A stretch of 64,000 nucleotides of DNA from an uncultured delta proteobacterium. Lineage in GTDB: Bacteria > Desulfobacterota > Binatia > Binatales > Binataceae. The stretch spans positions 1,792,001-1,856,000 of the forward strand of contig CAWJET010000001.1 of NCBI GenBank assembly GCA_963842085.1. Direction: 5' to 3'. The translations under genes and the position numbers were made by a program. The first letter of the stretch is position 1. Each line of letters starts with the position of its first letter. This document shows, piece by piece, positions 15,506 to 40,622 of the stretch. The notes under the pieces are model-generated. The model worked only from the letters and a program-made list of their open reading frames with translations. It had not been told where the DNA came from and ran no database searches.

Positions 15506-15509
<4 letters not shown>
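14499..15509 (-). CDS. Dihydroorotate dehydrogenase-like flavoprotein (PFOR-associated family)
   Basis: [56 protein letters not shown]-coupled to the nifJ stop. Confidence 0.9.
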
Positions 15510-19111
<3,602 letters not shown>

Positions 19112-19865: not shown

Positions 19866-21458
19866 TCAGTGGGCGTTCATCGCCGCGAGACCCGGATGCG
19901 GAGAATCATCGCGGATCGCGAGCGGCGTGCCCACCTGTTTCGGTCTCTTCGGACGCGGCGGAGCTGCCGCAGGCACGTTCTGGGCGACGGCGGCCCGCTT
20001 CAGTTCCTCGAAGACCTGCTCGACCAGCGACTTCATGCGATCCGGATCGGGCATCAGATTGGGTGCAGCCATCATCGTGAAATAGAGATTCTGGTTGTAG
20101 CTGATGATCGGCACGCCGAATCCGAGATTGGCGCCCAACGGAAGCAGGCCGAGGTAGTCGACCATCCGATGGCCCGCGAGATAGAGCGGCACCTGTGAGC
20201 CGGGAACGTTGGTGGCGATGAAACTTATCCCCATCGGCTGCGCCGCGCGTCTGACCCATGACGGGAAAATTCGCTGGAACGACACTGCGGTATCCATCGC
20301 CGTGGTTGCAAATCCGGCGAGCGTCGCGACCAATGCCGGCGGCGAGGCACTCAGGCCGATACTCATCAATCTTTCGAGCGCCTGCGGCTCCGCGGCTTCC
20401 TTGATCCTTTGGGTCTCAGCCGTGACGAGCTTCAGCCTGGCCACCGGATCCATTGGTTCAGCGGGCAATTCGGGGAACATCATCGAAACCCGGTTCCCCA
20501 ACGACCCGTTTTCGTCGTCGTGTCTCACACTGACCGGGCACCCGATTCGGAAGGGTGCGCCAGGCTGCACGCGATGATCGCGCAGGTAGCGGGCGGCGCC
20601 CTCGCTGAGCATCGTCAGCACGACATCGTTGATGGTGCCGCCAAAGGCGCTGCGAATCGCCCGGATATCCGCAAACGACGTGCGCAGCCAGGCCAGCGTC
20701 CGCTCCTGGGTGACCAGGCCGGCGCTCCAAGGTGTGGCCGCGATCGGTCGAATCATCTGCCGGGCCAACTTGGCGAGCGCGCCGGCATCCGCGCCAAGAT
20801 CCTTAACCAACGACCGAACGTCCGGGGCCTTTCGACTCAGGCGGCGCATCGAGTCGACCTGTTCCTGAGCGCGGTCGAGCGCGACGTCGACCAGCTGTCG
20901 CAGCGGTCCTGGCAGAGGTTTTGGAGACCATCGCTCGACATACGGTTCCGGCGCCGGGGGGTCCGGCCGGAAATCCATCACCACGTTCAGCAACTCCATT
21001 CCCGACACGCCATCGACGAGGCAATGGTGAATCGTCCACATCACGACCGAGCGATTGCCCTTGAAGCCGTTGAACAGGTTCACCTCCCACAGTGGGCGGT
21101 TGCGATCCAGCGGCTTGCGGAAGACCGCCATGGCCGTCTCGATCAGCTGCGCTTCGGAAGTATCCTCAGGCAACTGATGGAACTTGACGTGATTCTCGAT
21201 CGTGAAGTCGGGATCGTCCTCCAGCGTCGCGCGATCAAGATTGAAAGGCACCGGGATCAGGCGCTGACGGTAACGCGGAACCAGACGCAGTTTGCTCTCG
21301 AAATGACGGATCAACTCCGGATACGTGATCTCGTCATCGAAGAACGAGAGCGAGCCGACATGCAGTGGCCCGTTGCGCGACTCGCCGTAAATGAAGGTGG
21401 CATCCTGACCAGTGAGGCGATGGCTCAGCTTTTCAATTGCGATAGACTTTTCAGCCAT
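19866..21458 (-). CDS. Wax ester synthase/diacylglycerol acyltransferase (WS/DGAT)
   Basis: RLTGQDA.F, PLDR.RPLWE, catalytic HHCLVDG, TINDVVL, LGNRVS, TNVPG.Q.PLY. Confidence 0.93.
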   Translation of the reverse strand: MAEKSIAIEKLSHRLTGQDATFIYGESRNGPLHVGSLSFFDDEITYPELIRHFESKLRLVPRYRQRLIPVPFNLDRATLEDDPDFTIENHVKFHQLPEDTSEAQLIETAMAVFRKPLDRNRPLWEVNLFNGFKGNRSVVMWTIHHCLVDGVSGMELLNVVMDFRPDPPAPEPYVERWSPKPLPGPLRQLVDVALDRAQEQVDSMRRLSRKAPDVRSLVKDLGADAGALAKLARQMIRPIAATPWSAGLVTQERTLAWLRTSFADIRAIRSAFGGTINDVVLTMLSEGAARYLRDHRVQPGAPFRIGCPVSVRHDDENGSLGNRVSMMFPELPAEPMDPVARLKLVTAETQRIKEAAEPQALERLMSIGLSASPPALVATLAGFATTAMDTAVSFQRIFPSWVRRAAQPMGISFIATNVPGSQVPLYLAGHRMVDYLGLLPLGANLGFGVPIISYNQNLYFTMMAAPNLMPDPDRMKSLVEQVFEELKRAAVAQNVPAAAPPRPKRPKQVGTPLAIRDDSPHPGLAAMNAH

Positions 21459-21551
21459 TGTTCTCAAGCCTCCAAGGTCGCCTCATTCACTGGTCGTTGC
21501 TGCCGATTCAGGCGCCTTCGATCATTCGTCATTTTTGTTCAACGATCAGCA

Positions 21552-21567: not shown

Positions 21568-21797
21568 CCCGACGTTCTCAGAACATGCTCAAGATAACAT
21601 GGGTAGAGATTGACCAGCCTGTCACCAAAAGGCACAGGTGGCTCCGTCGGACGCATCCGACAACAGTGAGTGGAGGCGCAGATCCTAGAATCGTCGTCCG
21701 ACTACGACATGCCAGCGAAAAACCGATTCAGCCGCCGGCCGAGGCTCTACAGCATAAGGGCGACGCTCGCTACGCTGAGTGCGGGCGCGATATGAAC

Positions 21798-21813
21798 CGG
21801 CATGGGAAATGCT
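21798..21813 (+). promoter_or_regulatory. Sigma-54 promoter candidate for the LLM gene
   Basis: CGGCATGGGAAATGCT, GG-N10-GC, about 40 bp upstream of the ATG. Confidence 0.5.
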
Positions 21814-21853
21814 CTACTGTTCGCAGCGAAGAGCCGGTAACGGAGGAACTGCA

Positions 21854-22957
21854 ATGAAGTTCGGGATGCTGCATTTCTTTGAACATCCTGCAGGGGGCAA
21901 GAGTGAGCACCAAATAATCAGAGAGCAGCTCGATTGCATGCGCGCGGCCGAGGACTTGGGCTTCGACTCCATCTGGGCACCCGAACATCATTCCACCGAA
22001 TATGGCTTCAGCGCGTCGCCTATGTTGACGCTTGCGGCGATTGCATCCGTTACGAAACGGATCCGATTGGGGAGCGGTGTCATGGTGCTGCCGTTTAACG
22101 ACCCGATCCGGGTAGCCGAGGAAGGAGCGATGGTCGACCTGATGAGCGATGGCAGGCTCGACCTTGGGGTTGGGAGAGGCTTCCAGCCAATCGAGTACCA
22201 GGGGTTCACAGTCAATCAGGCCAGGTCACGCGAGATTTTTGACGAGGCTCTCGACGTAATTGTGCGCGCATGGACGGAGGAACCGATGAGCTTCAAAGGA
22301 GCTCACTTCGACATTCCCGAGCAGTCGGTGCGTCCCAAGCCGTTGCAGAAGCCTCACCCGCCCATATGGATCGCCGCCATCAGCGAGCCTTCCTTCGAAT
22401 TGGCCGGTCGACGGGGGTTCAATCTGCTCTGTTCGCTGGTCTACGGCTTTAAGTCTGATCGCCTTCACCAGCTTCTTGCGGACTACCGCGATGCTTTACG
22501 CGAAAAAGGATTTAACCCCGAAGAGCGCGAGCTCGGCGCCTTGTGCATGGTCTATTGCTCGGAGTCAACCGAACAGGCTCGGCTGGACTTCGGTGCACCG
22601 GTGTTATGGTACTACCGAACCATTGCGAACCTCGTAGCTCCTCCACTCGGCCAGCTACCTCCAGAAGGCTACGAAGCCTATCCGAACATTCGCAAGGCGG
22701 CGCAAACTGTGCAGTGGGACGAGCTTGTGAACAGTGGCACCCTGATATGCGGAAACCCGGCGTCGTGCATCCGGCAGATTGAGGAGCTGCAGACGAAATA
22801 CGGTTTCACTCAGATACTGTGCTGGACCAGGCTATCCGGTCTTGAGAACCGAAAGGTTCTGAGAAGCATGGAGCTTATGCAAACGCATGTGATTCCGCAC
22901 TTCAAACGTCAGGCTCAAGACCGAGGTACCCGGCACGGCTTGCGTTCCCAAGAGTGA
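21854..22957 (+). CDS. Luciferase-like (LLM class) flavin-dependent oxidoreductase
   Basis: MKFG...AEDLGFDSIWAPEHH, T.RIRLG, P..VAEE.A.VD.MS.GRL.LGVGRG, PKPLQKPHPPIW; GGAGG RBS. Confidence 0.93.
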   Translation: MKFGMLHFFEHPAGGKSEHQIIREQLDCMRAAEDLGFDSIWAPEHHSTEYGFSASPMLTLAAIASVTKRIRLGSGVMVLPFNDPIRVAEEGAMVDLMSDGRLDLGVGRGFQPIEYQGFTVNQARSREIFDEALDVIVRAWTEEPMSFKGAHFDIPEQSVRPKPLQKPHPPIWIAAISEPSFELAGRRGFNLLCSLVYGFKSDRLHQLLADYRDALREKGFNPEERELGALCMVYCSESTEQARLDFGAPVLWYYRTIANLVAPPLGQLPPEGYEAYPNIRKAAQTVQWDELVNSGTLICGNPASCIRQIEELQTKYGFTQILCWTRLSGLENRKVLRSMELMQTHVIPHFKRQAQDRGTRHGLRSQE

Positions 22958-23043: not shown

Positions 23044-24729
23044 CTACTTACTTGCCGCGGGCACCGGCGTCCGCTGATGCGCGAGGAAGCGCGCGATGTC
23101 CTCGATCTCGGTGTGGGTCAGCTTGCCCTTCGGCTCCAGGAACGAAGGCATCTTGCTCTGCGAGAAGATCGCCTTGGGATCCTCGATGTAGCGGTGGATG
23201 AACGAAACCGACCGCACCAGCCCAATTCCGCTCAGGTCGGGTCCTTCGGCGCCGCCGTGGCCTGCCACGGTGTGGCACTTGCCGCAGTTTCGGTAGAACA
23301 GCCGGGGCGCCTTGTCGCTATAAGGCCCGCCACCCTGCAATTCCTCAATGTAGTCGAACAGGTCCGCGCCTTCCTCCGGCAACAATCCGGTCATTGCGGT
23401 GCGCATACCGGGCCGCACCACTTGGCCGGGCTGCTCGAGATGGGACAGTATCCAGACTTTGTCGTGCTTGAGCGGATCCAGCATCAGGTCGGGCCCGATG
23501 TTGGCCCCGCGGCCATTGACGCTGTGGCAGTATGCGCAATTCAGCGCGTGAAAGAGCCGGTGACCCTCGGCGACGGTCGGCAGTTCCGGCACATATGGGT
23601 TGAGTAGCGGCGACTGCGCGCCGATCACGGTCAACGCAATCACACCAACCAGCGCGGAGATACCGAAGGCGACGGCAATCGGACGGTCGAGCGGATGTTG
23701 GCGCATCCGCCGATCGAAGAAAGGCACTGCCAGGAGGATCAGCAATGCGATCCCCGGCAGCCCGACTGCCGCAACCGATTCCAGGCTTCCGGGAAAATAC
23801 TTGAGCGCCTGAAACAGGAACAGGAAGTACCAGTCGGGCCGCGGATTGAAGCTGATGCTGGCGGGGTCGGCCATCTCGCCGATCTCGACCGGATATCTCC
23901 AGGCCAGAAAGGCCACCACAAGAAACGCAATCACGACCGCGACTACGTCCTTGGCCAGGTAGAACGGATAGAACGATTCGCCTGCCTCTTTGCGGCGATG
24001 GTATTCCTCGTCCGCCATCCGCCGCTGGGTTTCGATGTCCAGGTTGTCGTATTCGGGATGATGCGAGGGCGGCGCCGAAATGCCCTGCCGCACGACCATG
24101 AAAAGATGCGCCGACACGAAAACGATAAGCGCCGCCGGCAGCATCAGCACGTGCATTGCGTAGAAGCGGGACAACGTCTGTGGGCCGACTTCGCTGCCGC
24201 CGCGGAAGAAGCGCACGATGTACTGTCCTATCATCGGGGTTGCGCCCGCGATGTTGGTGCCGACCACGGTCGCCCAGTACGCTTTCTGGTTCCAGGGCAG
24301 CAGGTATCCGGTGAACCCGAACAGCATCACGACCAGGAACAGGACGACGCCGGTAACCCAGGTTGTCTCGCGCGGATACTTGTAGCTGCCCGAGAGAAAC
24401 GTGGTCAGCATATGCGCGCCGATCACCACCACCATCGCGCTTGCGCCCCAAAAGTGAAGCCCGCGGATGAACCAGCCCAGGAAAGCGCGCGTCGAGATGT
24501 AACGCGCGGCGTCGTAGGCGTGATCGGGGCTGGCCACATAGTTCATCGCCAGCATCATCCCGGTCACTGCTTGCAGGATAAAAAAGAACAGCAGAATGCT
24601 GCCGAGCGTGTAGATCCACTCGACCAGCGGGCTGCTTTTCGGAATATTGCGATCGAACAGCGCCTGCCGGATGGTGCGCGTGCCGAGGCGCTCGTCAAAC
24701 CACTTGCTTAATCGGGGTCGGGACCACAT
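23044..24729 (-). CDS. qcrB: Cytochrome b (b6 + subunit IV type) fused to two class I cytochrome c domains
   Basis: H-x13-H and H-x14-H heme b ligands, GYLLPW.Q.AYWA, PDWYFLF Qo motif, then CAYCH and CGKCH heme c motifs with GPDL and distal Met (SKMP). Confidence 0.93.
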   Translation of the reverse strand: MWSRPRLSKWFDERLGTRTIRQALFDRNIPKSSPLVEWIYTLGSILLFFFILQAVTGMMLAMNYVASPDHAYDAARYISTRAFLGWFIRGLHFWGASAMVVVIGAHMLTTFLSGSYKYPRETTWVTGVVLFLVVMLFGFTGYLLPWNQKAYWATVVGTNIAGATPMIGQYIVRFFRGGSEVGPQTLSRFYAMHVLMLPAALIVFVSAHLFMVVRQGISAPPSHHPEYDNLDIETQRRMADEEYHRRKEAGESFYPFYLAKDVVAVVIAFLVVAFLAWRYPVEIGEMADPASISFNPRPDWYFLFLFQALKYFPGSLESVAAVGLPGIALLILLAVPFFDRRMRQHPLDRPIAVAFGISALVGVIALTVIGAQSPLLNPYVPELPTVAEGHRLFHALNCAYCHSVNGRGANIGPDLMLDPLKHDKVWILSHLEQPGQVVRPGMRTAMTGLLPEEGADLFDYIEELQGGGPYSDKAPRLFYRNCGKCHTVAGHGGAEGPDLSGIGLVRSVSFIHRYIEDPKAIFSQSKMPSFLEPKGKLTHTEIEDIARFLAHQRTPVPAASK

Positions 24730-25228
24730 AAAGGAAGCCCTCGCGGACCTCAGTCGCGTAAATGTCCAGCGGACGCGGGGGAGGACCGCTGACCACCTTC
24801 CCGGTCATGCTGAACACGCCGGCATGGCACGGACAGAAGAACTGCTTGGCCTGCTCGACCCATCGGTAGGCGCATCCCAGGTGGGTGCAATGCGGATCGA
24901 ACGCGAGGATTTTGTCCGGCAGCCGCACCACCCACGCCGTCACCTGCGAATCGTCCGTCTCCCATCCCTCGACCACGCGCCGGGCGACCTCGAGCCGCTG
25001 GGGAAAGTTGAGCGGAAGGTCGTCGACCTTTCCTACCCGCACCCAATCTTTGGCTTTGGGCGCGCCAAACAGCGGACCGATGAGATAAGTCAGGATGGGC
25101 GCCGCGATGCCGACGGTGACCAATCCGACGCCGGACCAGAACACCCGCGCCAGAAACCGCCGCCGTGATCCGTTCCCTACCTCGCCGGCCGCAACCTCGG
25201 CGGTGTCTGCACCATCACCCGGGGACAT
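24695..25228 (-). CDS. qcrA: Rieske [2Fe-2S] subunit of a quinol:cytochrome c oxidoreductase
   Basis: Tat motif SRRRFL plus TM helix; CTHLGC and CPCH boxes; GPPPRPL. Confidence 0.93.
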   Translation of the reverse strand: MSPGDGADTAEVAAGEVGNGSRRRFLARVFWSGVGLVTVGIAAPILTYLIGPLFGAPKAKDWVRVGKVDDLPLNFPQRLEVARRVVEGWETDDSQVTAWVVRLPDKILAFDPHCTHLGCAYRWVEQAKQFFCPCHAGVFSMTGKVVSGPPPRPLDIYATEVREGFLYVVPTPIKQVV

Positions 25229-25242
25229 GGCTTGCAGCGCTT

Positions 25243-25647
25243 TTACTTGTTGCAGAAGCTGCGGACGTAGGCGACCAGCCCGCGAATCTCGTCGTCGTCG
25301 TAGGCCTTGCCGAAATCTCCCATGTCCTTGCTTTTGCCCACTGACTTGCCGCCGTTCTTGATGACGTTAAAAAGATAATCGTCGGTGTATTTGGACATCG
25401 CCGCGCAATCCGTGTAGTTGGCGGGCTTGGCGCCCTTCAGCTCGGCGGCCTTGGGTCCGTCGCCTTTGCCCGACTGACCGTGGCAGTCGGCGCACGAATC
25501 CGCATAATTGCTGGCCGCGGCCTTCAGATCGACCGCGGCGGCGCGGGCTGTGCTCGAAATCAAGGCGAGCGCTGCAACCGCCGGTATGGCCGACGCGGTC
25601 CAAATCCACAGTCTCGATCGAATCCTGGTTCTCAAACTCTCAGACAT
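25243..25647 (-). CDS. Periplasmic monoheme cytochrome c (MtoD-like position)
   Basis: GGAGG RBS, signal peptide ending ARA, CADCHG..GKGDGP, IKNGG, distal Met (SKDMGDF). Confidence 0.9.
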   Translation of the reverse strand: MSESLRTRIRSRLWIWTASAIPAVAALALISSTARAAAVDLKAAASNYADSCADCHGQSGKGDGPKAAELKGAKPANYTDCAAMSKYTDDYLFNVIKNGGKSVGKSKDMGDFGKAYDDDEIRGLVAYVRSFCNK

Positions 25648-25770
25648 GGCTCCTCCGATTCCCTCTATTCCCTTCCTGACACCTGGTTCGCGGGCCGGGT
25701 CGCGGTGGAAGGTGGTCGTTCGTTGTTTGCCCCGGCCTCTCGCTGTTCGCAAATATATACCAACCTCCGA

Positions 25771-28023
25771 CTAAAATTTGTATTTCAGGGTTATGAATCC
25801 GACATTGGCGTCGTAGGGAGACCAGTCACTGTTGCCGAGGAATGTCGAGTTTGGGCTGGCATGCGGCATGTAGTTCTGGACTTGATCCGTCATGAAATTG
25901 TGTTCGCCGAAGTTGCTGAAGTAGTAGCCGATGTTGATCGCGAAGTTGTCGCGCAAATCGTACTCGTACTGAATCATCAAGTCGTGCAACCTGGTGCCGG
26001 TATCGGGATAGTCGATCGCCGGCGTTGACGACGCAGTATCTCCCGACTGGTGGATGCTGCTGTTGCCAACCGTGTACGTGTACTGGAGTTTCAGGTGCGA
26101 CGGCCTGAGCAAAAAACGATTCTGCGGTATCGCGATGTCCATGCCGACATCAATATTGTTGCCCTGATTGCGGCCCACGGCCGTCCAAACCGACGTTTTC
26201 CCCGGCGGTGGCGGCGGCGCAGGGATCGTGCTTTCGTCAAGTGACCGTGTGTTCCAATCGTACGCCTGCCATTCGTAGTCGCCAAAGACGTGCACGCCCG
26301 GCAGTGGATCCCAACTGGCCCCTACCGACGGTGAATAGCTTGAAGTGTGCTGCAGGCCGAAATCGGTGGACGGGTAGTTATAGTCGTCGTAGTTGAAGGC
26401 CGCGAACATCGTCAGGTGTTCGATCGGCTGCACGGAGGCGTAGAGCGAAGTCTGGTTCACATCGAGCGTGGCCTCGTCGAACCGCCGCAGGTCCTGCAGC
26501 TCCTCGATATCTCCCGGGGTCCCGCCGAGCACCTCGACCAGGCTGGCGCGGTTGTTGTTGTATCCCGGCGAGTCGCGATGCGCGTGCTGGTAATCGGCGC
26601 GGAAATTCAGCCACGGGTATGGGTTCCAATCGAGCGCTGGTCCATAGCTGGTTTGATCCTGCTGCAGTACCATCAGCCCGCCGTTGTGGTTGGTCTGCCA
26701 CTCGAAATTAAAGTGCGCGGCGAGAGTATCGGTCACGCGGTAGGTTGGCTCGATGCTGACGTCCTGCTCCGAGAAAGCAAAGGGATAAGCGGTGAAAGGA
26801 GTCTGCGCGCTCGCCACGTCATTCAGCGACTTGACGCCGGTGAAGGTGATCGCCGGCGTCAGGTTGTCGTAATCGAAATAGGAATAGGTTGCGGTTAGAT
26901 TCAGCCGTTCGATCGGATTGCTGTCGATCGTGAAGTTGGCGAAGAAAGGTTGCACGTCGCCGCCAAGGCTATTGGGCGCTCCGACCGAACTTAATGACTG
27001 CTGCAGCTTGCTGTTGCTGGTAAGCGGGATGAAGGGCGAGTTCTGCAGCCAGAATCCGTACTCCAGGCTGCCCATTACGTGCGTGTTGTATGGGAGCTGA
27101 CCTGCTCCGTTCACGATGAAGTTGTGCGCCTGGTTGTTCGGGTACATCGCCGCTCGTCCCTGGCAGGGGCCGGTAAGCGACGTGGAACTGAAGCTGATGG
27201 AATCAACGCAGTTACTGCCAACTCCGCTGGTATTGAGGGGATTGTCCCAGGTCAGGGTGGAGTAGTCGTCAACGAAGAAGGATCCCTGGTACTGGAATCC
27301 GAGCATCCATCCGTTTTTCGCGTATTCTGCGCCCGCGCCGAAGTTATAGGTGTAGTACTGCGTTGGCACCCAGAGTTCATTCACTTTGAAAGTACCCGGG
27401 CTGCTGCCAAACATAAAGCTGCCGCCGAAAGGCTGTTGGCCGGTGGGGTTCTGATAATCCAGGTTCGCACTGAAGCTCAGCGACGGCGTCGGCGTATAGC
27501 GCAGGTTGATGTCCGCGATACCTTCGAGCAGGCTCATGTCGAACGGCTGGCCGTTCGCTTCCAGCCAGGAATGGAGAGCGGCGCCGGTACCAGTGGGCTT
27601 CGAGGATAGAGTGAAGCTGCCGCCGTTTTCGTCGTACGGCGTGCTCGCGACGTGGTCGCTGAAGAAGTGCGGAATCTCGATGAATTTTACCTGAACATCG
27701 AGCAGACCGTACTCGCCGAAGCGCAGCGAGTACATCTGGTTTTTTTGCCCGACGTTGACGCCATCGAACTGGACGTAGTAGTTCTCGGCCTTGTCGCCCA
27801 GGATCAACTGGAGTTTCGGGGCGATGAACTGCTGCGCAAGATCGCGGTACTCCTGATACTTCGCGGCGACGTCGTCATAAGGAACCGGCTGGGGAATGGC
27901 GCCCGCCTCGACCGAACCCTGCGCTGTGTATTGCCCGAGATCGACCTGTGCCAGTGCCGGCGAAAGCATTGACAGCACCAGCGCCACCGTTCCGTACCCG
28001 GCGAATAACCGCTTCAGGTTCAT
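25771..28023 (-). CDS. mtrB: MtrB/PioB/MtoB family outer-membrane beta-barrel porin
   Basis: Signal peptide, AKYQEYRDL, TLTWDNP, P.N.AH, LRRFDEA, C-terminal LKYKF; 750 aa; directly downstream of the decaheme cytochrome. Confidence 0.9.
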   Translation of the reverse strand: MNLKRLFAGYGTVALVLSMLSPALAQVDLGQYTAQGSVEAGAIPQPVPYDDVAAKYQEYRDLAQQFIAPKLQLILGDKAENYYVQFDGVNVGQKNQMYSLRFGEYGLLDVQVKFIEIPHFFSDHVASTPYDENGGSFTLSSKPTGTGAALHSWLEANGQPFDMSLLEGIADINLRYTPTPSLSFSANLDYQNPTGQQPFGGSFMFGSSPGTFKVNELWVPTQYYTYNFGAGAEYAKNGWMLGFQYQGSFFVDDYSTLTWDNPLNTSGVGSNCVDSISFSSTSLTGPCQGRAAMYPNNQAHNFIVNGAGQLPYNTHVMGSLEYGFWLQNSPFIPLTSNSKLQQSLSSVGAPNSLGGDVQPFFANFTIDSNPIERLNLTATYSYFDYDNLTPAITFTGVKSLNDVASAQTPFTAYPFAFSEQDVSIEPTYRVTDTLAAHFNFEWQTNHNGGLMVLQQDQTSYGPALDWNPYPWLNFRADYQHAHRDSPGYNNNRASLVEVLGGTPGDIEELQDLRRFDEATLDVNQTSLYASVQPIEHLTMFAAFNYDDYNYPSTDFGLQHTSSYSPSVGASWDPLPGVHVFGDYEWQAYDWNTRSLDESTIPAPPPPPGKTSVWTAVGRNQGNNIDVGMDIAIPQNRFLLRPSHLKLQYTYTVGNSSIHQSGDTASSTPAIDYPDTGTRLHDLMIQYEYDLRDNFAINIGYYFSNFGEHNFMTDQVQNYMPHASPNSTFLGNSDWSPYDANVGFITLKYKF

Positions 28024-28095
28024 TACCTTCCCTCCCGAGAGGCCGCAAAACCGCGGTGCGGCCCAGCGATGCCGTGCCTTCGTCTGCTTCCCGCA

Positions 28096-29133
28096 TCAGC
28101 GCGTGAAATATCTCCCGCCCGGCGAGTTGGAGCCGTGTATCTGCGAATGGCAATTGGTGCATTGCTGGTTGATAACGAAAATTTGTCCCCTCGCATGGGG
28201 CGAACTTGGATGATGGGTGCCGATGTGGCAGCGCTGGCAGAGCAGCGGCATGTTGATTACCAGCATGTGCTGGTTGACGCTGCCGTGCGGCAGATGGCAG
28301 TTCAGGCAGTTCATCGCCACCGGCGCGTGCATCCACAGGAACGGCCCGCGCTTTTCGGCATGACAGCGGTAGCAGACCTCATTGACCATCGCCGCCCGCA
28401 ATTGATGCTGGTAGGGTCCGCCGTGCGGATTGTGGCAGTCGGTGCAGGTCATCGACCCTTCGCGCAACGGCATGTGCGAGGGCAAATTGATTTCCATCTT
28501 CTTGTCCATATGGCAGCGGAGGCAGACCTGGGTTTCGGGGCGCGTCACGATGAATGGATTGATGAATTCCGTGCCCAGCGGTGACTTCTTGAGTTGCGGC
28601 TCCGGCAGCGCACTCGCCGTCACCGGACACATCACGGCGTGGCAATCGACGCATCGGATGCCGCGGGTGGCGTGTGGACTGACGTCCCAGAACGCACGCT
28701 CGCCGTTCTGATGGCATTCGAGGCAGCGTTCGTTCTCAATCTTGATGTCAGTGAAGGAGGTCTCTTGAAAATTCAGAAATCCCGGCGCCGGCTTGTGCGG
28801 ATGGCGTATGTGCTCGCGGCCGGGACCATGACAGGACTGGCAGGCGAGGCCCTCCTGCTCGTCGCGCGGCCGGCCCAGCATGAGATGGCCCATCATTGTC
28901 TGCCGGAAGGACTTGACCTGTACATCATGGCAACTGGTGCAGGTCGAATTATCGACGTAGCCGCGCGGCAGGGTGGCCCCCGATGCCGTCGCTTGGGAAG
29001 GCAGGGTGCCGTCCGCGCCGATTGCCGGGGTGGATGAACTCAGGGAGGCGATTCCAAACGCGAGCAACGCCACGAAAACACCCGCCCAAAATTTTCGCGG
29101 ACCGCGTTCCCCCTCCATCCTGGTGTCCTCCAT
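28096..29133 (-). CDS. mtrA: DmsE/MtrA/MtoA family periplasmic decaheme cytochrome c
   Basis: Ten CxxCH motifs (CTSCH, CQSCH, CLECH, CVDCH, CLRCH, CTDCH, CYRCH, CLNCH, CQRCH, CTNCH); hallmark CHAEKRGPFLW.H.PV and CHSQIHGSNSP.G..F.R; Sec signal. Confidence 0.95.
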   Translation of the reverse strand: MEDTRMEGERGPRKFWAGVFVALLAFGIASLSSSTPAIGADGTLPSQATASGATLPRGYVDNSTCTSCHDVQVKSFRQTMMGHLMLGRPRDEQEGLACQSCHGPGREHIRHPHKPAPGFLNFQETSFTDIKIENERCLECHQNGERAFWDVSPHATRGIRCVDCHAVMCPVTASALPEPQLKKSPLGTEFINPFIVTRPETQVCLRCHMDKKMEINLPSHMPLREGSMTCTDCHNPHGGPYQHQLRAAMVNEVCYRCHAEKRGPFLWMHAPVAMNCLNCHLPHGSVNQHMLVINMPLLCQRCHIGTHHPSSPHARGQIFVINQQCTNCHSQIHGSNSPGGRYFTR

Positions 29134-29448
29134 TTCGGGCGCCAGCCGTTGGCGCCCGTTCGGCAGCTTACCGCCGGCGCTTACACGTGCTCCTCACAGC
29201 GACGAATGTAGTCGAAACTGTCGAGCGGCAGGCGTAGCTCCCGGTCCGCCTTCGCCTCGATGGTCCCTAGGCTCGATCGCATACCTTCCCCCGCGTTCTC
29301 GAACTCGCCCCTCACTGGTCCGAGAATCCGACTGTGCCCCGATCGGAACTGAATCCAAGTAGCCCAGACGGTCTGCCTTTGCAAGGTTCCAAGTGGGTTT
29401 GGTAGTGTCCCCGGACAAATGCATGCGCGCAAGACAAAGAGGGCGGTG

Positions 29449-30198
29449 ATGGGCAAAGTGGCCGGCAAGGTCGGGACGTGGATTTGCGTTATCCTGGTTG
29501 CGGCTATTTCCGCTTCCTGGGCCGCGGAACTCCCGAAGGCCGACAGTGTCGGCGGCACGATCGAAGGATTCGTCCGAATCGAGGGCGAGGTGCCGAAACT
29601 GGCGCCGCTCGACGTCAACAAGGACACGGACATCTGCAAAGACGTGCCCAACGAAACGCTGGTCGTTGGCCCGGGCAAGGGCGTGCAATACACGGTGGTC
29701 ACTATCGAGGGGTTGGTGAAGGCGCCGGAACCAGGAGGCGGCGATCAGGTCTCCACCGTAAACCGGCTCGACAACAAGGGCTGCCGGTTCGTGCCACATG
29801 TGCTCGCGATGGAGGTGAATCAATTTCTCGAGATCGACAATAGCGATCCGATTCTGCACGCCACGCACGCCCTGTTCCATGAGGGGCAGCCGCAATTCAA
29901 CGTGGGTCTATATCCCGGAAGAATCGTTCGCAAACCGATTGTAACGCCAGGCCCGGTGAAGATGATTTGCGAAGTGCATCCGTGGATGAGTGCCTACGTC
30001 TACGTCACGCAGAACCCGTACCACGCTGTTACCGACATCTATGGAAGGTATGAGATTCGCGGCGTACCGCCAGGCACCTACCGACTCAAGGCCTGGCATG
30101 AACGTCTGGGTATGCAGGAGCAAAAGGTCGTAGTCACAGAGGGCAAGACGACCGAGGCGACCTTCACCTTCAAGCCCGACGTGAGTGCGAGCCGATGA
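29449..30198 (+). CDS. Secreted cupredoxin-like protein with carboxypeptidase-regulatory-like (Cna-B/transthyretin-like) flanks
   Basis: Signal peptide; GCRFVPHV, N.DPILHATH, CEVHPWM (candidate H/C/H/M type-1 Cu set); VPPGTY...WHE.LG. Confidence 0.8.
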   Translation: MGKVAGKVGTWICVILVAAISASWAAELPKADSVGGTIEGFVRIEGEVPKLAPLDVNKDTDICKDVPNETLVVGPGKGVQYTVVTIEGLVKAPEPGGGDQVSTVNRLDNKGCRFVPHVLAMEVNQFLEIDNSDPILHATHALFHEGQPQFNVGLYPGRIVRKPIVTPGPVKMICEVHPWMSAYVYVTQNPYHAVTDIYGRYEIRGVPPGTYRLKAWHERLGMQEQKVVVTEGKTTEATFTFKPDVSASR

Positions 30199-30818
30199 GA
30201 ATCATTTCCGCGCTGTTGGCTGCCGCTCTGTTGATTGGCGGCAACGTCGCCGCACTGGCTGCGGGTCCGGATTCAAATTCGGGAGCCGTTGTCGGTACCG
30301 TCACTGTTAACGGACAGCCGACCTCGGATGTCGTCGTTTCCGTCGAGGGGTTGCCGCCGCCTGGCAATGAAAAAAGCCCGAACCCGGCGGCACCTCCACC
30401 GCAAGCGACGATGGCTCAACAGGATCTGAAATTCGTTCCTCACGTTCTGCCTATCCTGGTCGGAACGACGGTAGCATTTCCAAACAACGATCAGGTTTGG
30501 CACAACGTCTACTCGGACTCCAAGGTCAAGAAGTTCGACTTGGGCCTGTACGGTCCGGGCAAGAGCAAGTCAGTAATCTTCGACACGCCGGGTGTCGTGC
30601 GAATCCGCTGCAACGTTCATCCGGCCATGGAGGCTTACATCGTTGTCGAGGCTCAACCGAATTTCGCTTCTCCCGATGCGCAAGGCAACTACAAATTCGT
30701 GGGGTTACCGCTAGGCACCTACCACCTTCAGGTCTGGCATCCGTCGCTTGGCGTCAAGACGGAGTCATTCACGCTGGAGCGGGCTGGCGAGGTGCAGCAG
30801 ATAGACGTCAATTTCTAA
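30195..30818 (+). CDS. Secreted plastocyanin-like cupredoxin with carboxypeptidase-regulatory-like domain
   Basis: ATGA-coupled; signal peptide; FVPHVL, FPN.D..WHNVYS, CNVHPAM. Confidence 0.82.
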   Translation: MRIISALLAAALLIGGNVAALAAGPDSNSGAVVGTVTVNGQPTSDVVVSVEGLPPPGNEKSPNPAAPPPQATMAQQDLKFVPHVLPILVGTTVAFPNNDQVWHNVYSDSKVKKFDLGLYGPGKSKSVIFDTPGVVRIRCNVHPAMEAYIVVEAQPNFASPDAQGNYKFVGLPLGTYHLQVWHPSLGVKTESFTLERAGEVQQIDVNF

Positions 30819-40088: not shown

Positions 40089-40622
40089 TCAATCACCGGG
40101 GCGCGTAATACGGAAGACGGGGTACAAAGGCGCGATCTTCGCGAACTCCGATAACTCGGCCTTGAGATCGATCTCGATATGCGGGCGCGCGCCGGGCGCG
40201 GCCCGAAGATACGCCTTCAGGATGGGCGCGCGCTCACCGACGGGCACTTCCTCGAGTCGCACCTCTTCAACACGACCGTGACGCAATGTCGCAATACCGC
40301 CGGCGGCCCGCACGTTCTGGACCCAACTCGCGTTCTGACCCAGCATCGAGACCAGGTACTGCTCCCCCGCTACCTCAGCAATCACGACGGGAGCCGAATA
40401 GACGCGGCCTGTGCGCCGCCCCACCGTTTCAAGGCTCGCCACCCACTTCGGCGAGATACCGGCGGCGAAAATCCGCGCCGATACAGAGTTCATCCATCCG
40501 GCGAGGGCGTTCGGTCTGCCTCCCGGATACAGCATCGCGCGGTACCATGACCGCGGCATCCAAAGGACGGCGCTCAAGAAGGCCGCAACGATCAGTGCCA
40601 CGATTGTGATCAGGTAGATCAA
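40089..40622 (-). CDS. Deazaflavin (F420)-dependent nitroreductase (DDN-like) family protein with N-terminal TM helix
   Basis: LETVGRRTG....PV, YLVS..G...WV.N.RAAG, PVFRI. Confidence 0.75.
   Translation of the reverse strand: MIYLITIVALIVAAFLSAVLWMPRSWYRAMLYPGGRPNALAGWMNSVSARIFAAGISPKWVASLETVGRRTGRVYSAPVVIAEVAGEQYLVSMLGQNASWVQNVRAAGGIATLRHGRVEEVRLEEVPVGERAPILKAYLRAAPGARPHIEIDLKAELSEFAKIAPLYPVFRITRPGD

Follow-up and report, generated by a model that had tools for sequence, protein, structure and literature searches.

A compact MtrAB cluster with its own Rieske/cytochrome b complex in a Binatota genome: a probable wire between external iron or humic substances and the quinone pool

How electrons pass between outer-membrane conduits and the quinone pool is less settled than any other step of extracellular electron transfer (EET), especially in Fe(II) oxidisers. 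A cluster that bears on this step is that of Zixibacteria RBG-1, which comprises MtrA, MtrB, two monohaem cytochromes, multihaem cytochromes and PetAB, with no extracellular cytochrome, and which was read from sequence as a system for mixotrophic Fe(II) oxidation (Castelle et al. 2013, Nat Commun 4:2120, PMC3903129). Two comparative papers on EET genes, with no occurrence of either Rieske or bc1, are silent on a link between MtrAB and complex III (PMC6295460 and PMC8805035). Here, we analyse a related cluster from the genus Candidatus Binatus (Binatota), located at positions 23044-29133 of a 64,000-nucleotide stretch (GenBank assembly GCA_963842085.1, contig CAWJET010000001.1, positions 1,792,001 to 1,856,000; hereafter the window), in which five genes encode a decahaem cytochrome, an MtrB/PioB-type barrel, a monohaem cytochrome c, a Rieske protein and a cytochrome b fused to two c haems. 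We propose that this block probably wires external iron or humic substances to the quinone pool, and we assign a probability of roughly 0.45 to the whole statement, that is, that the block is a functional unit and that it serves electron uptake.

Binatota are abundant and uncultured in soil and peat and have so far been described as methylotrophic and alkane-degrading, with an aerobic chain based on alternative complex III (ACIII); the word "extracellular" is absent from the genomic survey (PMC8262859). Within the limited paper collection searched, no description of an MtrAB-Rieske/b cluster in Binatota was found. A preliminary description of the window had allowed that the architecture might already be characterised, and this is partly so: the architecture is not new, being in print for RBG-1 as a description from sequence.

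Composition and integrity of the five-gene block

The genes of the block, given in the order from the decahaem to the cytochrome b gene, are as follows.

28096-29133, minus strand: periplasmic decahaem cytochrome c of the MtrA/MtoA/DmsE family (345 aa, 10 CxxCH in the translation)
25771-28023, minus strand: MtrB/PioB-family outer-membrane barrel (750 aa, signal peptide, C-terminus ...LKYKF)
25243-25647 (open reading frame 25243-25752), minus strand: periplasmic monohaem class-I cytochrome c (169-aa frame, one CxxCH, PF13442/PF00034)
24695-25228, minus strand: Tat-exported Rieske [2Fe-2S] protein (177 aa, PF00355, RRRF twin-arginine motif)
23044-24729, minus strand: cytochrome b6-like protein with a subunit-IV-like part and a C-terminal dihaem c domain (561 aa; PF00033, PF00032, PF00034)

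The preliminary description of five closely packed genes on one strand, running from a decahaem gene to a b-cc fusion, was borne out by the open reading frames (ORFs) and their profile matches. The spacing is 72 nt between mtrA and mtrB, 123 nt between mtrB and the c gene (18 nt if the latter starts at its TTG) and 14 nt between the c and Rieske genes, and the Rieske and cytochrome b ORFs overlap by 35 nt; the c gene likely starts at ATG 25647, where the signal peptide begins, and not at TTG 25752. All five ORFs are intact, with each haem and cluster motif present.

The conduit part consists of a DmsE/MtrA decahaem gene followed directly by an MtrB/PioB barrel gene. The decahaem protein scores 228.8 bits against TIGR03508 (DmsE family, cut-off 192.2), resembles PDB 6r2q chain A, the MtrA of the solved MtrCAB structure (E 1.8e-53), and is 83% identical to its ortholog in the genus relative G014; the MtrA homologues listed are all named only "DmsE family decahaem", come mostly from Binataceae, Binatia and Terriglobales and give no hint of the direction of electron flow. 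(The molecule name of 6r2q chain A reads "Cystathionine beta-synthase" in the sequence file, an apparent labelling error.) The barrel scores 260.6 bits against PF11854 (MtrB_PioB, cut-off 23) and 209.8 bits against TIGR03509, under the stricter cut-off of 240.05, so that of TIGR03508 and TIGR03509, both among the checks initially suggested, only the decahaem profile scores above its cut-off. Barrel orthologs within the genus are 82-85% identical, and a sequence search of the PDB with the window protein gave no match at E 0.01. Its translation lacks the N-terminal CXXC signature of the MtrB proteins of metal-reducing gammaproteobacteria, an absence to which we give no weight. The monohaem cytochrome c gave weak matches to cytochrome 579 and PdsA in an NCBIfam-type profile search.

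The remaining two genes hold the parts of a Rieske/cytochrome b complex: Rieske boxes, N- and C-terminal parts of cytochrome b with a Qo motif, and c-haem domains. The Rieske cluster boxes are CTHLGC (residue 114) and CPCHAGVF (CPCH at residue 132), with no Ser, and no Tyr after the second box, and the top NCBIfam matches are b6f-type Rieske models, under their cut-offs. The cytochrome b matches PF00033 (172.3 bits), PF00032 (33.9 bits) and, in two stretches, PF00034; it carries the Qo motif PDWY at residue 298 and CxxCH at residues 398 and 482, and its closest solved relatives are cytochrome b6 chains (E 2.5e-49). Missing Ser and Tyr presumably mark a low-potential Rieske protein. Together with PDWY, which goes with low-potential Rieske proteins and menaquinone (Kao & Hunte 2014), this Rieske box points to a low-potential, menaquinol-type complex. 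Among the five cytochromes b of the genome, PDWY is found only in that of the window, APWY occurs in three, and the oxidase-linked one gave no match to the searched pattern. As to the quinone itself, the genome yielded no MqnA/MqnD family match, and its MenD and UbiH-family matches all fell under cut-off.

The window contains no further ORF of at least 100 aa with at least four CxxCH, and thus no NapC/NirT and no MtrC, in agreement with the preliminary description; in the whole genome, no OmcA/MtrC-family protein was found (TIGR03507 best score 19.1 bits, cut-off 209.3). Soil metagenome contigs from two of the four runs examined, belonging to two studies, span the MtrB/c/Rieske joins (X2 record 4, 25285-26479; X5 record 28, 24961-25597), indicating that the compact layout is not an assembly artefact, and populations in seven soil runs carry the compact form. 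Among the runs listed for the 6.1-kb stretch, none was of RNA. A scan for promoters and terminators was uninformative: it gave one promoter-like site where 2.7 were expected and 11 terminator-like sites where 8.2 were expected, and the intergenic gaps contained none of them. A simple consensus scan upstream of mtrA revealed no convincing sigma-54 promoter.

Ties between MtrAB and a complex III-type enzyme

We compared the block across 47 genomes of the genus and 81 of Zixibacteria. Type-1 MtrB occurs in 10 of the 47 genus genomes, as does an ortholog of the Rieske-linked cytochrome b, and eight genomes have both, seven of them on a single contig with the two genes 1-15 kb apart and one (G047) split at contig ends. 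The other two MtrB-bearing genomes, G041 and G057, have a long cluster without Rieske/b, in which an ACIII-like module (pentahaem, 818-aa Mo-like, FeS, NrfD, c, NrfD) stands right behind the third c gene; within the genome of the window, this module is most similar to the housekeeping ACIII. One quinol:cytochrome c oxidoreductase is in this way exchanged for an analogous one at an unchanged position. The stretch 23044-29205 is conserved relative to relatives between flanks that differ on both sides, and the regulator pair that lies upstream of the long cluster in G014 (a sensor kinase and a sigma-54 regulator) sits 440 kb away in the window's genome, which argues that the block moved or survived as a unit. 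Similarity to three related loci (L020, L022 and L023) sets in some 72 nt ahead of the mtrA start codon, with the following feature, and extends to the end of the cytochrome b gene.

29134-29205, minus strand: mtrA leader, the last stretch common with relatives, which marks where the conserved block ends on its upstream side

Measured against G014, dN/dS is 0.24-0.45 for the five genes.

The pairing recurs outside Binatota. MtrB was found in 4 of the 81 Zixibacteria genomes, with Rieske and cytochrome b genes within 5 kb in three of the four, and two genomes (G063 and G071) have the window's order A-B-c-Rieske-b. In Bryobacterales, three loci carry a DmsE-family decahaem gene (272-277 bits) followed by a gene for a 665-667-aa protein, the pair being divergent from Rieske-cytb-cc, at these positions:

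L101:6396-9340, decahaem gene and 665-667-aa gene
L093:6331-9374, decahaem gene and 665-667-aa gene
L111:6393-9310, decahaem gene and 665-667-aa gene

The 665-667-aa protein has a signal peptide and the C-terminus ...LLWSF, matches no Pfam or NCBIfam family and reaches 6% probability in a profile comparison with the MtrB alignment; among its look-alike clusters in a protein atlas, some have PF11854 in 10% of members and others have porin families. We regard it as a lead, probably a diverged MtrB-like barrel.

The window lies in a genome of two contigs (3.24 and 1.69 Mb, rated 100% complete) in which cytochrome b is encoded at five loci, and which also has an ACIII and a total of two MtrAB clusters. 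The four cytochrome b loci outside the window are ordered as follows.

Locus 1: COX2-COX1-COX3-dihaem c-Rieske-cytochrome b
Locus 2: c-flavoprotein/FeS-Rieske-b-tetrahaem
Locus 3: b-(301 aa)-octahaem
Locus 4: Rieske-(437 aa)-b-pentahaem

The oxidase-linked Rieske/b locus looks, from its gene content, like the aerobic housekeeping one. With five cytochrome b loci and an ACIII, the window complex is neither the sole nor the obvious housekeeping complex III, so the possibility, raised at the outset, that the genome's only complex III had been placed beside MtrAB by chance was rejected, and a candidate for the separate housekeeping enzyme that was to be looked for is present. At C2:36900-41870 (L114), the Rieske/b genes lie between a monohaem c gene and a flavoprotein-like gene (Pyr_redox_2/Fer4_20) on the upstream side and a tetrahaem c gene on the downstream side, an arrangement reminiscent of NAD(P)-linked Rieske/b complexes that have been proposed in anammox bacteria.

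The second, paralogous MtrAB cluster (L031) is about 50% identical to that of the window and is ordered as follows.

C1:663000-676000 (C1:663-676 kb): MtrA2-MtrB2-c-pentahaem-pentahaem-Kelch-TPR-c-NapC/NirT-like tetrahaem (171 aa)-183 aa-11-haem-FdnI-like cytochrome b-ABC1 kinase

In the genus relatives, the cluster of the window has a long form, MtrA-MtrB-c-c-[NrfH-like hexahaem, 11-haem, FdnI-like cytochrome b, Band 7]-c-Rieske-cytb-cc, in which the 11-haem cytochrome has a C-terminal anchor. The bracketed interval, about 5.8 kb, is absent from the window, and the NrfH-like gene has no copy anywhere in the window's genome. The c gene in the window is chimeric, combining the first or second c gene of relatives with their third: in all nine long-form loci, 25541-25700 matches only the first and second c genes (77-87% identity), and 25243-25480 is closest to the third (80-86%, versus 64-71% for the other c genes). 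The same chimeric gene is present in two other records, L042 and L036.

25480-25540, minus strand: approximate crossover within the c gene, from first/second-c-like to third-c-like, located by sliding identity against relatives

The compact five-gene form most likely arose by recombination between the paralogous c genes that deleted the 5.8 kb. Recombination between c genes allows insertion of the interval as well, and the polarity is inferred; our preference for deletion rests on the paralogous type-2 cluster, which likewise contains an 11-haem/FdnI-like b pair, about as diverged as MtrA and MtrB. The lack of a NapC/NirT-type partner in the window cluster would then probably be a secondary loss. 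At one long-form locus (L118, G002:C4:100000-119999), MtrB is split by a frameshift and about 7.5 kb of extra DNA with a 9-haem gene and a second 11-haem gene lies between the FdnI-like b and Band 7 genes. A Binataceae record (L032:111-2833), probably the same as contig C126 of genome G018, holds a decayed cluster with the C-terminal six-haem part of MtrA and the first ~43 MtrB codons, followed by the C-terminal ~100 residues of Rieske and an intact cytb-cc.

The preliminary description had taken the Rieske/b complex to be dedicated to the conduit, and the eight genus genomes with both, the ACIII swap in the other two and the recurrence in Zixibacteria and Bryobacterales uphold this. It had also called the system self-contained, which holds in part: the complex III-type enzyme belongs to the cluster, while the absence of NapC/NirT is probably secondary, given the NrfH-like hexahaem, 11-haem and FdnI-like b genes of relatives, and the genome keeps a NapC/NirT tetrahaem in its second Mtr cluster. 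From comparison of the genes we judge, with good confidence, that the five genes probably work together as a unit that links the cell exterior with the quinone pool.

Direction of electron flow and genomic surroundings

In the reading that we prefer, MtrA, predicted to lie inside the MtrB barrel, would take electrons through the outer membrane, the periplasmic shuttle would be the monohaem cytochrome c, and the Rieske/cytochrome b complex, of low-potential menaquinol type and with its fused dihaem c, would form the quinone-coupled node at the inner membrane. During uptake, an external donor, be it Fe(II), reduced humics or some other, would pass electrons to MtrA and on to the c pool, from which a downhill branch could deliver electrons to aa3-type oxidases for energy, and an uphill branch could drive Rieske/b in reverse, at the expense of proton-motive force, towards the quinone pool and NAD(P)H. 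In the window's genome this NAD(P)H could feed the Calvin-Benson-Bassham (CBB) cycle. A complete CBB operon (C1:691800-712000) encodes a glpX-type fructose-bisphosphatase, phosphoribulokinase, class-II fructose-bisphosphate aldolase, the large and small RuBisCO subunits and a CbbX-like AAA protein, and it is followed by multicopper-oxidase-like, COX2-like, ribulose-phosphate epimerase, UbiA-family and cupredoxin genes and then by a second oxidase, COX3-COX3-COX1-COX2. The host, first portrayed as a beta-oxidising heterotroph, is thus not just a heterotroph.

Several observations favour uptake over export: the genome has no OmcA/MtrC-type extracellular cytochrome; the monohaem c shows its weak likeness to cytochrome 579 and PdsA; the CBB operon and the second aa3 oxidase with its cupredoxin lie ~20 kb from the other Mtr cluster; the organisms in which a bc1 or ACIII is known to be coupled to an outer-membrane iron system are Fe(II) oxidisers (PMC10654088, PMC5566968); a review of the inner-membrane quinol oxidases of EET names neither bc1 nor Rieske (PMC6295460); and RBG-1 was read likewise (Castelle et al. 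2013).

Other observations weigh against a unit built for uptake. Among 41 genomes searched, RuBisCO was found only in that of the window, and in none of the 24 genus relatives of the sampled set, including the cluster-bearing G014, G008, G005 and G002, so a CO2-fixing uphill branch cannot explain the cluster in the relatives; a heterotroph that oxidises Fe(II) would need the downhill branch only. Rieske/b complexes, moreover, natively work as quinol oxidisers. As to the unit itself, the cluster is less constrained than the flanking regulator genes (dN/dS 0.10-0.16). The c-Rieske-cytb set occurs without MtrAB in L042, where the cytochrome b is 93% identical and the 9 kb upstream hold unrelated genes, in L039, where a molybdopterin oxidoreductase gene precedes it, and at two loci of Myxococcota. 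The set also stands alone at most Acidobacteriota and Chloroflexota loci; the majority of Acidobacteriota loci with a cytochrome b of this type lack a decahaem gene in the vicinity, and a gene of at least nine haems occurs at only three of the loci L045-L111. Conversely, the MtrAB genes of other Binatia families (L028-L030) have no Rieske/b within ~8 kb. The cluster also decays in places, as the frameshifted MtrB of G002 and the deletion remnant in L032 attest.

Export is the foremost alternative. (Mena)quinol would be oxidised by Rieske/b with Q-cycle proton translocation, and electrons would pass through the dihaem c, the monohaem c and MtrA to an acceptor of fairly high potential, for example oxidised humics, Mn(IV) or, at low pH, Fe(III); in the long form, acceptors of lower potential would be served by the modules with the NrfH-like protein and with the 11-haem cytochrome and FdnI-like b. 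This would be the normal, energy-conserving reaction of Rieske/b and of ACIII, and it would suit relatives that carry the cluster without RuBisCO. The NrfH-like and CbcL-like quinone-coupled modules of the long form are of the kind that metal reducers use outwards, near-identical DNA occurs in soil metagenome runs of two studies, related records are titled as metagenome-assembled genomes from peat and palsa, and the phylum has been portrayed as one of aerobic heterotrophs and methylotrophs (PMC8262859). On the other side, known members of the MtrA decahaem family are low-potential. A Rieske centre near +120 mV, the value quoted in Kao & Hunte 2014, would have to reduce a cytochrome of this family; no known metal reducer feeds its conduit through a bc complex (no mention in PMC6295460), and the genome lacks an MtrC/OmcA-type cytochrome. 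Energy-conserving export thus seems to us a possible but doubtful account of the block.

We find it improbable that the two halves are mere neighbours, with c-Rieske-cytb-cc acting as a general quinol:cytochrome c oxidoreductase that feeds a common periplasmic c pool. The solitary units in L042, L039 and the Myxococcota, Acidobacteriota and Chloroflexota loci would fit such a role, as would the two genus genomes whose Mtr cluster lacks Rieske/b; in those two, however, the ACIII-like module holds exactly the place of Rieske/b, and the pairing recurs in three phyla, the block stayed whole while both its flanks were rearranged, and the Rieske/b locus encoded with aa3 oxidase genes looks like the one with the housekeeping part. 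Least probable of all is a compact cluster that ceased to work after the deletion and is now being lost, since the patchy occurrence (10 of 47), the decayed copies, the dN/dS above that of neighbouring genes and the sister form L042 without MtrAB are outweighed by five intact ORFs with all haem and cluster motifs, dN/dS below 0.5 for every gene, a compact form carried in seven soil runs with its join bridged by contigs from two of the four examined, and the same gene order as the standard form in Zixibacteria.

We therefore retain the five-gene block as a unit that probably connects the cell exterior to the quinone pool, with uptake as its tentative direction. The comparison adds evidence that a complex III-type enzyme is integral to MtrAB-type clusters in three or more phyla outside the Proteobacteria, adds a new phylum for this cluster type and supplies informative natural variants, namely the compact five-gene form, the swap of Rieske/b for ACIII and the decayed copies. 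The window holds the smallest natural version, five genes with a single inner-membrane partner, and for this reason a convenient construct for heterologous tests. For Binatota, it adds possible redox cycling of iron or humics and, in this genome, a CBB operon. More speculatively, a Q-cycle complex, be it Rieske/b or, in sister genomes, ACIII, might be the interchangeable inner-membrane end of MtrAB conduits in soil phyla other than Proteobacteria, working outwards and inwards. We think this generalisation unlikely as yet. If it is true, extracellular respiration would be coupled to proton translocation at complex III, the same wire would be reversed for lithotrophic uptake, and the five-gene form would represent a minimal reversible energy-coupled wire; we know of no studied metal reducer that couples extracellular respiration to proton translocation at this point.

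Beyond the block, a pair of cupredoxin-like genes lies divergent from mtrA.

29419-30818, plus strand: two secreted cupredoxin-like proteins (259 and 207 aa), divergent from the block, each with a C-terminal CarboxypepD_reg domain and C-x2-H-x2-M sites

The pair shows weak amicyanin/plastocyanin matches and was not found beside the cluster in relatives. Cupredoxin-CarboxypepD_reg genes adjoin Rieske/b or cytochrome b loci in three places: the tandem pair in the window, a gene at C1:368391-369095 (L113) that follows the cytochrome b/octahaem locus of the genome, and one at L101:16716-17438, 39-40% identical and 5 kb from a Bryobacterales Rieske-cytb-cc. A further small redox protein gene, for a high-potential iron-sulfur protein (HiPIP), directly follows dihaem c-Rieske-cytb-cc at a Myxococcota locus (L044:11976-12452), where the cytochrome b is 54% identical and has the Qo motif PEWY. 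The window also encodes a 1201-aa pyruvate:ferredoxin oxidoreductase (15506-19111, minus strand), a WS/DGAT wax-ester synthase (19866-21467, minus), a luciferase-like monooxygenase (21779-22957, plus) and an F420H2-dependent quinone-reductase-like protein (40089-40622, minus), none of them common to the flanks of the cluster in relatives.

Comparison with known systems

Shewanella MtrCAB-CymA has the MtrA and MtrB families in common with the window, which lacks CymA and whose genome lacks MtrC/OmcA; the window MtrB is too diverged to match 6r2q by sequence, and the inner-membrane partner is of a different kind. Sideroxydans MtoAB-MtoD-CymA(ImoA) is closer in having an MtrC-less decahaem/porin pair, a small monohaem c and a quinone-active haem protein in the inner membrane (PMC5566968), and its cluster includes a NapC/NirT protein, which that of the window does not. 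In Gallionellaceae KS, mtoAB is accompanied by Cytc1, Cytc2 and Cytbc, and the inner-membrane protein even unites b-type and dihaem c domains in one chain (He et al. 2017, PMC5566968). The partner of Mto-type conduits, as presented in these accounts, is a NapC/NirT tetrahaem, the nonahaem MtoC or a b561-dihaem fusion, not a Q-cycle complex of the Rieske/b6 type.

Two further systems involve a Rieske protein or a bc1 complex. Geobacter extHIJKLMNOPQS resembles the block in that one conserved cluster encodes ExtO (Rieske) and ExtP (cytochrome b) together with an outer-membrane porin-like protein and multihaem cytochromes (Jahan et al. 2018, PMC5877670); the window cytochrome b scores 213.3 bits against the ExtP model NF040969, under its cut-off of 290. 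ExtI, however, is like phosphate-selective porins and not like MtrB, and the system includes a rhodanese and a selenocysteine cytochrome and is tied to selenite/tellurite reduction in the published work (PMC5877670). No ExtI, rhodanese or ExtKL equivalents were found among the annotated neighbours in the window. Acidithiobacillus ferrooxidans is an acidophile with a high-potential, ubiquinol-type bc1. The window's Qo motif and Rieske box point to the low-potential type, unlike that bc1. The A. ferrooxidans petI operon (cycA1-sdrA1-petA1B1C1), together with rus, offers a parallel in a dedicated second bc1 that has its own c-type cytochrome and is reversed in Fe(II) oxidation, with a cupredoxin in the pathway (PMC10654088, PMC5566968); the outer-membrane component there is Cyc2, not MtrAB, and is encoded in an operon separate from the bc1.

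The nearest counterpart is the Zixibacteria RBG-1 cluster, which unites a decahaem protein, a porin, monohaem c and Rieske/b in one cluster with no extracellular cytochrome in its description, and which, like the block in the window, is known from its genes alone (PMC3903129). It belongs to a different phylum: Zixibacteria proteins are ~40% (MtrA), ~24% (MtrB) and ~37% (cytochrome b) identical to those of the window, and the cytochrome b of Zixibacteria carries no fused c haems, its gene being followed by a 9-haem gene and further multihaem genes. Further multihaem cytochromes of the RBG-1 type are absent from the window and present, as 6-haem and 11-haem genes, in its genus relatives.

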